From Candidatus Omnitrophota bacterium (GTDB taxonomy: Bacteria > Omnitrophota > Gorgyraeia > Duberdicusellales > Duberdicusellaceae), in the NCBI GenBank assembly GCA_016932855.1, contig JAFGCB010000064.1, positions 1,767-65,766 of the forward strand: 64,000 nt of DNA, read 5' to 3'. Shown here piece by piece: positions 28,465 to 30,975 of this stretch. Every line of letters starts with the position of its first letter. Positions within the stretch are counted from its first letter, which is position 1. The notes under the pieces are model-generated. The model ran no database searches. It had not been told where the DNA came from and saw only the letters and a list, made by a program, of their open reading frames with translations. Made by a program: the position numbers and the translations under genes.

Positions 28465-30975
28465 TTGCTGATGCGTGCGTTAATAAAGCGGGACATAGTA
28501 AAGGCTCTTAAAGCCATTATTACCGATGATGACTCGGTGATTGTCATGCATTCCAATATTTTTTCTTTCGGACAGATGGATAATATCGTTCCTGAGATTA
28601 TGGCCGCGATTTTCAAGACGCTTAAGCCTTTCCAAACCCTGCTTATGCCGACCTTCACTACTTCTTACTGCAAAAGCTTTTGGTATCATTGGAAGGAGAC
28701 GCCCTCGGAGACCGGGGTTTTGAGCGAATATTTTCGCTCCCTTGCCGGGGTATCGAGAACCTGGTGTCCGATAAATTCTTTCGCTGTTTGGGGGCCTGAG
28801 TCTGAATATTTCATGTCTTGGAAAAAAAGCGCGACCTGCTGGGGCAGCGACTCGATTTATCAGGCATTGTATGATAAAAACGCTTTAATCATAGGATTTG
28901 GCGAGAAACTTGCTTTAACAGCTTCTATTCTTCATTATGCTGAGGAATGCGAGAAAGTTCCCTATCGATATTTTAAAACATTTTTTGGGCAAGCTGATTT
29001 CGGAGATGGCCAGGACAAAGTTTCTAAAAAGATGTTTGTAAGGCGCGTTGATATACCGGTGCGCTATGATTATTCAGCGGCGGTAAATGAGCTTATAAAA
29101 AATAAACGTTTCAGAAAAACAAAGTTGGGGATGTCATTCGTCGAAGCTTTTAAGGCGAAAGACGGCGTCGGTATTTTAAGAAAGCTTATAAAGAAAGACC
29201 CTTTGATTGTTCTTTCCAACCGGCAAGAATACGAGGCTATACAATCCAAGAAAGCGATTTCCTTTCTTGGCGGCAGCAATCTTGATCTTACCGCCAAGAG
29301 TTTTGCCGATGAATACCAGCGGTATCTCGGGCAAGGCTGCCGGATTGTTCCGGTTCCTTTTAACCAATACAAACAGCAGATACTTGATCCCGAGAGTGCC
29401 TTGCGGGTAGCAGATCCCGACTATGTCATATTTATCGAGCGTGCCGAAGATATTTTAGACGATTACTTAAGGTTCCCCTTTAGGAATGGCCTTAAAGCAA
29501 AAGATTTTGAGCGTCAAATAGCTACGCGGGTAATGCAGTATGTGGATATTATAAAACAAGCACGCCAGGTCCTCTCTGGAGTCTTTATTGTCGCCAATTT
29601 TGAATCAATGATGCCTTCCACCTTGGGTAATATCGACGGTATAGTGGAATTTGGCAAAACCAACGTTATTGCCATTGCCAACAGGTATTTAACCGAGTCC
29701 TTGCAAGGGATTGATGATGTGCATATTCTGGATTTTAAGTCCCTCGTCGGTATGTGCGGCTCTTACAATGCCTTTGGCGGGAAGTATTGGTATATGGGCA
29801 GGGTTCCTTTTACCAAGGAGTTTTCTGTTTTATTGAACAGGGCTATTATTGGGATAATCTTAGCCCTTCAAGGCCGGACTATTCGGCTCATTGTTTTGGA
29901 TTTAGACAATACCTTATGGGGCGGCGTGGTCGGTGATGAGGGTGTAGAAAATATTCATTTGGGCGGGGACTATCCCGGTAATGCCTATAAGGATTTCCAG
30001 TTTTTTCTTAAGGCTCTTTCCGATAGAGGGATAGCTTTGGCTATTTGCAGTAAGAACAACGAGGAAAACGCCCTGGAGGTTATTCGAAAACATCCTGACA
30101 TGGTCTTAAGAGAGGACTCTTTTGCGGACTACAGAATTAATTGGGAGGATAAGGCTTCCAATATCCTTTCATTATCTGAGTCCCTTTCCTTGGGTACATA
30201 TTCTATCCTTTTTTTGGACGATAATCCCGTGGAACGGGAATGGGTAAGGCGTAATGTACCGGGATGTCTTGTGCCCGAGCTTCCTTTGAATGTTTCTGAA
30301 CGGGTATATTTTCTGGCTGCCTACCCCTTTTTACAGTGTCAGCAGATTACCGGAGAAGATCTTAAGCGCAGTAAACAGTATACGAAAAAAATAAAGGCTG
30401 AACGATTCAAGCGCTCTTTTAATAAAATAGAGGATTTCTTTTTTTCGCTGGGGATGCATATTTTTATTGAGAGCTACAATGATTTGAACAAAGGGCGTAT
30501 CCAGCAGCTGATAGCAAAGACTAATCAGTTTAATACCACAACGAAGCGGTATCAACAGGGGGATTTGGTAAGGCTTATGCGGCAGGAAAAGGCGGAGATT
30601 TACGCGATTGGCTTTCAAGACAAGTTTTACGAGAGGGAGATTATAGGGGTAGTTATAATCTTGCCTGATAAAGAAAGGCCTGATGGTTATCTGATTGATT
30701 CTTTTATATTGAGTTGCAGGGTTCTGGGGCGGACGATTGAGACGGCGGTATTTGGATGGTTGTCGTCTTTGATATATAAGCGCGGAGCACGGAATTTAAC
30801 CGGCCTTATTGTGCCGACAGAGAAGAATAAACCGGCCCAGTCTATTTATGCTCAACACGGCTTCAAGAAGATATCGGGGCGCAATTCCTCGTTCCTTCTT
30901 GAAGCGCTCAACAGTATAAAAGTGCCGGACTATTTTACTATTCATAGACTCTATAAGGAGGCGATTTATGGATAA
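28465..30975 (+). CDS. tri-domain protein: AAC(3)-like N-acyltransferase fold / FkbH-like HAD-IIIC domain / C-terminal GNAT-like domain
   Basis: The N-terminus (VIVMHSNIFSFGQ…LLMPTFT…) resembles the aminoglycoside-3-N-acetyltransferase fold. The middle has an HAD motif I (LIVLDLDNTLWGG) and LFLDDNP motif typical of FkbH-like/HAD subfamily IIIC. The C-terminal ~150 aa are GNAT-like. Total 836 aa. Confidence 0.6.
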   Translation: MLMRALIKRDIVKALKAIITDDDSVIVMHSNIFSFGQMDNIVPEIMAAIFKTLKPFQTLLMPTFTTSYCKSFWYHWKETPSETGVLSEYFRSLAGVSRTWCPINSFAVWGPESEYFMSWKKSATCWGSDSIYQALYDKNALIIGFGEKLALTASILHYAEECEKVPYRYFKTFFGQADFGDGQDKVSKKMFVRRVDIPVRYDYSAAVNELIKNKRFRKTKLGMSFVEAFKAKDGVGILRKLIKKDPLIVLSNRQEYEAIQSKKAISFLGGSNLDLTAKSFADEYQRYLGQGCRIVPVPFNQYKQQILDPESALRVADPDYVIFIERAEDILDDYLRFPFRNGLKAKDFERQIATRVMQYVDIIKQARQVLSGVFIVANFESMMPSTLGNIDGIVEFGKTNVIAIANRYLTESLQGIDDVHILDFKSLVGMCGSYNAFGGKYWYMGRVPFTKEFSVLLNRAIIGIILALQGRTIRLIVLDLDNTLWGGVVGDEGVENIHLGGDYPGNAYKDFQFFLKALSDRGIALAICSKNNEENALEVIRKHPDMVLREDSFADYRINWEDKASNILSLSESLSLGTYSILFLDDNPVEREWVRRNVPGCLVPELPLNVSERVYFLAAYPFLQCQQITGEDLKRSKQYTKKIKAERFKRSFNKIEDFFFSLGMHIFIESYNDLNKGRIQQLIAKTNQFNTTTKRYQQGDLVRLMRQEKAEIYAIGFQDKFYEREIIGVVIILPDKERPDGYLIDSFILSCRVLGRTIETAVFGWLSSLIYKRGARNLTGLIVPTEKNKPAQSIYAQHGFKKISGRNSSFLLEALNSIKVPDYFTIHRLYKEAIYG

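Follow-up and report, generated by a model that had tools for sequence, protein, structure and literature searches.

What does an AAC(3)-like acyltransferase do when it is made as one polypeptide with an FkbH-like protein inside a glycan locus? The question is raised by a gene at positions 28465-30975 of a 64,000-nucleotide (nt) stretch of DNA from a Candidatus Omnitrophota bacterium (assembly GCA_016932855.1, contig JAFGCB010000064.1, positions 1,767 to 65,766 of the forward strand), referred to here as the window. An earlier note on this DNA had read the gene as an unusual fusion of three domains, in which an acyl unit loaded by FkbH chemistry would be handed directly to an N-acyltransferase for nonulosonate acylation. 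The analysis reported here leads to a different reading, namely that the product is probably a bifunctional enzyme belonging to a module that swaps the N-acetyl group of an amino sugar for a three-carbon hydroxyacyl group from 1,3-bisphosphoglycerate. The acceptor in this locus is most likely a pseudaminic acid (Pse) precursor or CMP-pseudaminic acid.

The fusion is made of two units, an AAC(3)-like (Antibiotic_NAT) domain and a complete FkbH-like protein. Stand-alone FkbH-like proteins of ~585-610 amino acids (aa) already hold an SGNH-like FkbH_N domain, a HAD-IIIC domain and a GNAT-like C-terminus, and because these together make an ordinary FkbH-like protein the true fusion event is the one between the AAC(3)-like and FkbH parts. 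A fusion of three independent families is ruled out on this ground. The domains and folds named in the earlier note were all found, but its count was wrong, and they are not normally separate proteins, as the HAD domain and the GNAT-like C-terminus belong to every FkbH. The likelier start of the gene is the ATG at 28471, two codons past the TTG of the open reading frame (ORF) and 10 nt after an AAGGGAG Shine-Dalgarno sequence, which gives a protein of 834 aa. A deposited protein of that length (P0001) is 100% identical to the window fusion and is named 'MAG: HAD-IIIC family phosphatase [Candidatus Omnitrophica bacterium]'. The AlphaFold2 (AF2) model (pLDDT 93.5, pTM 0.88) suggests a compact multidomain enzyme, and both halves look catalytically competent because the catalytic residues are conserved in the AAC(3)-like and FkbH parts.

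The fusion is real and widespread, not rare. An exhaustive search that covered 1.84 billion representatives of clusters at 50% identity gave 5,230 FkbH-like matches at E ≤ 1e-30, and at least 74 of the best 150 representative clusters carry an AAC(3)-like domain with FkbH, so the architecture is not the unusual one it had been taken for. In a word-indexed search, >50 clusters (810-950 aa, identity as low as 30%) proved to have this architecture. The look into other genomes that had been proposed was made as a scan of species-representative genomes with a six-sequence AAC3 subgroup as the query, which biased the loci toward Proteobacteria; 15 of the 21 loci from named genomes, spread over many phyla, carry the fusion, with hosts including Bradyrhizobium, Mesorhizobium, Stenotrophobium, Rhodobacteraceae, Woeseiaceae, Polyangia, Planctomycetota, Prochlorococcus and Polaribacter, among others. 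The window does come from a metagenome-assembled genome (MAG), and an assembly or sequencing error that joined two genes had been named as what would overturn the earlier reading. However, the artefact is refuted, and for practical purposes ruled out, because the junction recurs in these representative clusters, in independent assemblies and isolates. Additionally, P0130 (66% identity) spans the junction, and pLDDT is 96-97 over residues 240-300 of the AF2 model, where the junction lies. An aminoglycoside-resistance AAC(3) is ruled out as well, as the domain reaches 38.9 bits against a cutoff of 270 for the NCBIfam AAC_3 equivalog (NF033082) and 37.1 against 420 for AAC_3_IV. Taken together, an artefact or a resistance gene has next to no probability.

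The domain nevertheless has the AAC(3)-like fold that the earlier note had recognized. Pfam Antibiotic_NAT (PF02522) matches residues 28-241 with an E-value of 6.5e-25 (88.5 bits vs a gathering cutoff of 25), and structure comparison gave an AAC(3) fold with AAC(3)-IVa as the nearest structure (26.4). In all 46 aligned fusion rows H29, P62, G84, R98, S105, G110, H157, E160, Y167 and K171 are invariant. The catalytic His157, encoded at nt 28933-28935, falls in a column where AAC(3)-IVa has H (6mn3) and its H154A entries (6mn5 and 6mn4) have A. The domain belongs to the subfamily of the Campylobacter jejuni Cj1296/7 orthologues (E ~1e-55 to the profile).

The FkbH part is equally well defined, and the domain scores of the fusion are far beyond chance. 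The NCBIfam FkbH domain model TIGR01686 matches residues 473-801 (E 5e-78, 262.5 bits vs a cutoff of 146.65) over model positions 3-320 of 323, which covers both the HAD and the C-terminal domain; the NCBIfam HAD-IIIC model matches residues 475-597, and Pfam FkbH_N (PF21211) matches residues 294-465 (E 6e-8, 33.2 bits vs a cutoff of 27). The DLDNTLWGG and LDDNP motifs noticed before are indeed present, as VLDLDNTLWGG (D479, D481 and T483) and FLDDNP (D585 and D586), and across 64 aligned sequences these residues, S529 and K563, which make up HAD motifs I-IV, are invariant or nearly so. C751 of the S-C-R motif (codon at nt 30715-30717) is kept in 64 of 64 rows, and R752 is conserved too. FkbH_N, on the other hand, has no fully invariant Ser, His or Asp across the 64 sequences, and is probably non-catalytic or may have a structural or docking role. 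The structure prediction and fold search by domain that had been suggested recovered the FkbH_N/HAD and GNAT folds as well as the AAC(3) fold: FkbH_N with HAD is nearest to BF1531 (3slr; 26.8), FkbH_N alone to GDSL/SGNH esterases (15.8), HAD alone to MDP-1 (17.0) and the C-terminal domain to many GNATs (~14.5). The C-terminal domain of the window protein has no PF00583 match, and relatives match weakly (E 3.7e-5 to 0.01). Set against the pattern R/Q-x-x-G-x-G/A, the segment R752-V-L-G755-R-T keeps the R and the G, with a variable final position. The GNAT-like C-terminus is presumed to be the thioester (Cys751) domain of FkbH and not a second N-acyltransferase.

The genes next to the fusion form a conserved module. 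The stop codon of the fusion overlaps the ATG of a MaoC gene (ATGGATAA), and the two are translationally coupled. The gene that follows encodes a short-chain dehydrogenase/reductase (SDR) ketoreductase, with intact cofactor and YxxxK motifs, that ends in a cryptic acyl carrier protein (ACP). Pfam found no match on the ACP segment as a single sequence. However, the segment is homologous to the C-terminal extensions of the AAC3–FkbH proteins P0025/39/42/45, and a 22-member profile (A4) of homologues matches solved ACPs (2lml, E 9e-12; Escherichia coli ACP, E 5e-9); 16 of the 22 members match PF00550, and Ser335 of WDSL, at the phosphopantetheine-attachment position, is invariant in the profile. 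By this profile the ACP of the SDR protein is verified. Downstream of the fusion, 16 of 19 fusion loci have MaoC and SDR, in most cases joined in a single MaoC–SDR–ACP protein, and a DUF4910 gene adjoins the fusion in 14 of 19. In two loci (Planctomycetota and Prochlorococcus) the ACP is on the C-terminus of the fusion itself and MaoC/SDR are absent. A TylF-like gene adjoins the fusion in seven loci (L002, L005, L007, L010, L012, L026 and L028). In the three closest relatives on long contigs the order matches that of the window: PseB, PseC, PseF, PseG/H, PseI, a 404-aa protein, the TylF-like methyltransferase, DUF4910, the fusion, MaoC, SDR, a methyltransferase, a 365-aa protein, amidase, GNAT, amidohydrolase and formyltransferase. 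In L028, which lies in a 5.66-Mb genome, an insertion sequence (IS) element at 12309-13292 (rve integrase, opposite strand) stands right after a 776-aa truncated fusion and splits it from MaoC.

The FkbH unit takes part in a wider network of fusions (Table 1). The fold placed before it can be an Antibiotic_NAT, a PseH-like GNAT or a hexapeptide LbH, which are N-acyltransferase folds unrelated to one another. Because three unrelated folds occupy the place before it, there is strong Rosetta-stone evidence that FkbH supplies the acyl donor of the fused N-acyltransferases. The earlier idea that these families act together therefore holds up, and the pathway that uses the N-acyltransferase is very probably also the one that uses acyl loading by FkbH. 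The GNAT–FkbH loci adjoin Maf and flagellins and are followed by a Glyoxalase_4 (VOC) protein, with an ACP-like C-terminus seen in L023 only. DUF4910, which is present with AAC3-type loci, was found in none of the three GNAT- or LbH-type FkbH loci examined.

These observations suggest a pathway in which the two ends are held by the fusion. By the precedent of OzmB and the FkbH family, the FkbH part would capture the glyceryl group of 1,3-bisphosphoglycerate as a Cys751 thioester while the HAD domain removes the phosphate. The glyceryl group would then move to the phosphopantetheine arm of the SDR-borne ACP. There, MaoC may remove the 3-hydroxyl to give pyruvoyl-ACP and the ketoreductase may convert this to lactyl-ACP, by the route assumed for FkbH-DH-KR (dehydratase and ketoreductase) loading modules in polyketide synthases. 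The acyl group may also be O-methylated by methyltransferases. DUF4910 would expose the sugar amine by removing its acetyl group, a role taken from the de-N-acetylation that Hitchen et al. 2010 (PMC3068675) proposed for Cj1295 in connection with a 5-N-dimethylglyceroyl group. Finally, the AAC(3)-like domain would use His157/Glu160 to move the acyl group from the ACP thioester to the amine. Such a sequence of de-acetylation and re-acylation at N5 of Pse, the nitrogen that comes from GlcNAc, fits the pairing with DUF4910. The PseH-like GNAT–FkbH proteins, by the positional logic of the Pse pathway, would act on the free 4-amine (N7), and such systems would need no deacetylase for this reason. 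The direct hand-off from FkbH to the N-acyltransferase is unlikely, because the system is always accompanied by an ACP, carried on SDR, AAC3-FkbH or AAC3, and MaoC and the ketoreductase sit between loading and transfer. The fusion would instead join the loading step at the start and the transfer step at the end of a pathway built around a shared ACP. We put forward more tentatively, at a little under an even chance, that this is an acyl swap, widespread across many phyla, running from 1,3-bisphosphoglycerate through a dedicated ACP to N-glyceroyl, N-lactyl or O-methylated C3 amides on amino sugars of the cell surface, with DUF4910 as de-N-acetylase and Antibiotic_NAT as an ACP-dependent re-acylase.

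One caveat of the acyl-swap reading is that several points weigh against it. The identity of the transferred group, which may be glyceroyl, lactyl or methylated, is a prediction, as is that of the sugar receiving it, and Cys751 is the presumed acyl-thioester site by analogy with OzmB and from its invariance. The missing Pfam match on the single ACP sequence, given above, counts on the same side. The acceptor is presumably not always a nonulosonate: of the 12 genome loci with complete flanks, only ~5 have a NeuB gene no farther than 10 kb away. A strict nonulosonate association is therefore not upheld, and the nonulosonate acylation claimed earlier stands for the clade of the window, where the module is directly downstream of a full pse operon, but not in general. 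Other fusion loci sit in Wza/Wzc exopolysaccharide (EPS) loci, and the LbH–FkbH variant adjoins rml genes. Distant stand-alone AAC3-like genes (L017-L019, L021 and L022) have no FkbH or DUF4910 nearby; a pairing of DUF4910 with every AAC3-like gene thus holds for the fusion clade, AAC3-ACP and C. jejuni and fails in these. The conserved residues of the AAC(3)-like domain match those of acetyl-CoA-using enzymes, which makes acetyl-CoA use possible, and the separate GNAT at 26549 and the PseG-PseH fusion could perform N-acylation.

The last two points are the starting point of a rather unlikely alternative, in which the AAC(3)-like part is a conventional sugar N-acetyltransferase that uses acetyl-CoA and is merely co-expressed, and the acyl group made by FkbH, ACP, MaoC and ketoreductase is installed by another enzyme, such as that GNAT, an O-acyltransferase or DUF4910 as a transacylase. 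Its catalytic His/Glu and fold are those of AAC(3) enzymes, the cassette has extra GNATs, and Das et al. 2014 (PMC4000134) proposed that DUF4910 might be a transacylase. However, several proteins carry the AAC3-like domain joined straight to an ACP, others have it joined to MaoC, and co-expression hardly explains why three N-acyltransferase folds occupy the same slot before FkbH. It is very unlikely that the FkbH-like part is only a HAD-IIIC phosphatase acting on a phosphorylated sugar intermediate, with no acyl-thioester chemistry. The database name and the intact HAD motifs agree with that idea, but the curated FkbH threshold is passed, the S-C-R Cys is invariant and a dedicated ACP co-occurs or is fused; Pse and legionaminic acid (Leg) synthases are also not known to leave a phosphorylated product that would need a phosphatase. 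Slighter still is the chance that the module feeds a small secondary metabolite, with tetronate- or polyketide-like use of glyceryl-ACP, and not a glycan. All characterised FkbH proteins do serve polyketide or tetronate pathways, yet the window has no ketosynthase (KS), acyltransferase (AT) or FabH-like tetronate genes, the gene is embedded among sugar-nucleotide, Wzx/Wzy and glycosyltransferase genes, and its relatives sit in pse, EPS or flagellin-glycosylation loci.

In known systems, FkbH-like enzymes use 1,3-bisphosphoglycerate to form glyceryl-S-ACP (PMC7489565), OzmB is called a bifunctional glyceryl transferase/phosphatase in a title cited in PMC5318452, and FkbH loading modules are listed as yielding D-lactate-ACP (PMC7901079). 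These polyketide and tetronate systems, including the FkbH-DH-KR-ACP lactate-starter modules, share with the window the FkbH domains, DxDxT, the conserved Cys, the ACP and the dehydratase and ketoreductase. Unlike them, the window has no ketosynthase or assembly line, its dehydratase is a free MaoC hot-dog protein, and its acyl-ACP would be used by a sugar N-acyltransferase. No description of FkbH chemistry in glycan acylation was found in the open-access literature, which omits most subscription journals.

The closest analogue is the set of flagellin-glycan genes Cj1295–Cj1302 of C. jejuni NCTC 11168. That set shares with the window DUF4910, an AAC3-like protein of the same subfamily, FkbH, ACP and methyltransferases beside pse genes, and the same co-occurrence was found in the window. 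In the C. jejuni strain examined, the Cj1296/7 orthologues (Antibiotic_NAT) adjoin DUF4910, FabH, ACP and AMP-binding genes; in the 11168 annotation, Cj1298 is presumably a GNAT, again a family shared with the window, and the set also includes ACPs. The C. jejuni product is a glycerate-derived N-acyl nonulosonate, 5-N-(2,3-di-O-methylglyceroyl)-Pse, which depends on Cj1295, and the FkbH gene cj1302 is present (PMC3068675, PMC7099621). The genetic evidence in C. jejuni concerns Cj1295 only. The Campylobacter genes are separate and phase-variable, whereas the AAC3-like and FkbH parts of the window are one polypeptide, and the window module adds MaoC and ketoreductase-ACP, which predicts lactyl rather than glyceroyl.

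Two other sets of genes are informative. Clostridium acetobutylicum CA_C2195-CA_C2199 (Das et al. 2014, PMC4000134) shares DUF4910, an 'aminosugar N-acetyltransferase' and ACP, and also has an 'aminosugar N-acetyltransferase + HAD phosphatase' fusion, with adjoining NeuB and Maf genes. That paper focuses on DUF4910 and leaves FkbH and glycerate chemistry unnamed, and the acyltransferase of CA_C2199 may be AAC(3)-like or a GNAT. The module is uncharacterised, though partly foreshadowed in 2014. The Shewanella maritima GNAT–FkbH protein (P0076) has the FkbH unit in common with the window fusion. It too lies next to a gene for an ACP-bearing protein, and its operon reads pseB-C-F-G-[H–FkbH]-I. 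It differs from the window in its acyltransferase fold and has a glyoxalase-ACP protein in place of DUF4910, MaoC and ketoreductase; its predicted target is the free 4-amine (N7 of Pse), which would be acylated directly. AAC(3) enzymes (AAC(3)-IVa, YokD/BA2930 and FrbF) have 14-21% identity to the window domain, whose score is far below the AAC_3 equivalog cutoff. Unlike them, the window domain forms one protein with an acyl-loading enzyme and is encoded in a glycan locus, with acyl-ACP as the predicted donor and a sugar-nucleotide amine as the predicted acceptor.

The kind of N-acyl group that pseudaminic acid, legionaminic acid and other amino sugars carry affects antigenicity, recognition by phages and antibodies, and flagellar function, and the enzymes that install non-acetyl groups are largely unknown. 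The network described here provides a testable set of candidates (FkbH, a dedicated ACP, MaoC/KR as an option, DUF4910 and an AAC(3)-like, GNAT or LbH transferase) and a rule for reading loci, in which MaoC with ketoreductase predicts lactyl and the absence of both predicts glyceroyl. If true, the acyl swap would fill a gap by naming the genes and enzymes behind N-glyceroyl nonulosonates, among them the dimethylglyceroyl-Pse of C. jejuni and possibly also, via the GNAT–FkbH variant, Pse5Am7Gra of Tannerella forsythia, where the basis of the N-glyceroyl group was called 'a major challenge' (PMC5378307). It would also give the AAC(3) fold, known from resistance, a native role with an acyl-ACP donor and a physiological context, and DUF4910 a plausible function. 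Proteins named 'HAD-IIIC family phosphatase' could be better annotated, and cryptic ACPs like the SDR tail are probably under-annotated in glycan loci. We rate the value of FkbH/ACP acyl loading that may have been repurposed for amino-sugar N-acylation as a testable route to N-glyceroyl/N-lactyl enzymology, and not as a surprising new principle.

Table 1. The fusion, its domains and neighbours in the window, and related fusions in other loci and proteins
Feature	Locus or protein	Position	Strand	Remarks
AAC(3)-like–FkbH fusion ORF	window	28465..30975	+	uninterrupted; 836 aa from TTG
AAC(3)-like (Antibiotic_NAT fold) N-acyltransferase domain	window	28471..29229	+	residues ~3-255
FkbH_N domain	window	29248..29874	+	residues 262-470; SGNH/GDSL-esterase-like fold
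HAD-IIIC phosphatase domain	window	29875..30300	+	residues 471-612
FkbH C-terminal GNAT-fold domain	window	30301..30972	+	residues 613-836; S750-C751-R752-x-x-G755 motif invariant
MaoC-type hot-dog dehydratase	window	30968..31426	+	152 aa; PF01575 E 2.3e-18; GDVSPLH Asp/His motif
SDR ketoreductase fused to cryptic ACP	window	31448..32578	+	Pfam adh_short, KR; TGGTGSLG, YTASK
ACP at SDR C-terminus	window	~32333-32575	+	last ~80 residues; WDSL Ser335, nt 32450-32452
SAM (S-adenosylmethionine) methyltransferase with C-methyltransferase C-terminal domain	window	32597..33817	+	directly after SDR-ACP; conserved in the clade of the window
DUF4910/DUF2172/HTH_47 metallopeptidase-like protein (Cj1295 / CA_C2195 family)	window	27094..28425	+	Pfam E 2.9e-79
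GNAT (Acetyltransf_3) N-acetyltransferase	window	26549..27097	+	182 aa; in conserved cassette; homologues in L026-L028
TylF-like O-methyltransferase	window	24078..24923	+	PF05711 E 1.5e-6; candidate O-methylator of the hydroxyacyl group
Pse-type pathway	window	14349..22080	+	PseB-like 14349, PseC-like 15362, CMP-transferase (PseF) 16578
Pse-type pathway, continued	window			GFO oxidoreductase, second DegT, PseG-PseH fusion 19489, NeuB/PseI 21052
AAC3–ACP	P0132, P0134, P0143
AAC3–FkbH–ACP	L012, L013, P0025/39/42/45, P0299, others
MaoC–AAC3	P0186
AAC3–MaoC–FkbH	P0338, P0374			~1150 aa
AAC3–DUF4910	L020, Gemmatimonas aurantiaca MAG	9764-11974		single 736-aa ORF, directly upstream of NeuB
AAC3–ACP gene, then overlapping DUF4910 gene	L029			isolated pair
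LbH–FkbH(–ACP), then MaoC-like and SDR–ACP genes	L025, P0288
PseH-like GNAT–FkbH	L023 (Shewanella maritima)	9947-12942		PseH slot of flagellar pse operon
PseH-like GNAT–FkbH	L030	10001-13002		PseH slot of flagellar pse operon
CE4 polysaccharide deacetylase–FkbH	P0364			876 aa
GT2–…–FkbH–ACP	P0268			1308 aa

The window as a whole is one long co-directional glycan locus with Wzx, Wzy, a polysialyltransferase-like gene, glycosyltransferases and several radical S-adenosylmethionine (radical-SAM) enzymes. The Pse-type pathway is likely the source of the acceptor sugar. Its gene order is also found upstream of the fusion in L026 and L028, and the link of the fusion to pseudaminic acid in this clade is strong. 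Two separate nonulosonate pathways are present in the locus, the other being a legionaminic-like set at 2599-9373, where DegT and NeuB (3714) are accompanied by a CBS-GHMP kinase, an NTP-transferase and a CMP-transferase. As listed, the PseG-PseH fusion (19489-21036) begins at a GTG and overlaps DegT (18351-19619) by ~130 nt, and the true start is probably downstream. Two paralogues at 22886-24100 (404 aa) and 33846-34943 (365 aa), the latter adjoined by an amidase (34977), have no Pfam match; both are homologous (E ~1e-68 and 1e-73) to a 378-aa C. jejuni gene that lies beside hisH/hisF-like genes in the flagellin glycosylation island and that we take to be PseA-like, with a role in acetamidino formation.

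Five radical-SAM enzymes, four of them B12-binding and one of the SPASM type (12931-14319, 43555-44937, 45018-46439, 58661-60046 and 60110-61201), are an unusual density for one locus, which suggests C-methylation or other radical tailoring of sugars. Between 38000 and 50000, where the Wzx, Wzy, polysialyltransferase-like and GT2 genes form a block, GC content falls to 0.37-0.40 and AT skew is strongly negative; this fits either the codon content of membrane proteins or a separately acquired serotype-specific segment. At 51142-53211 an E1 alpha/beta pair (thiamine-dependent dehydrogenase/transketolase-like) is found among sugar-nucleotide genes and may add a two-carbon branch or carry out acyl chemistry on a sugar.

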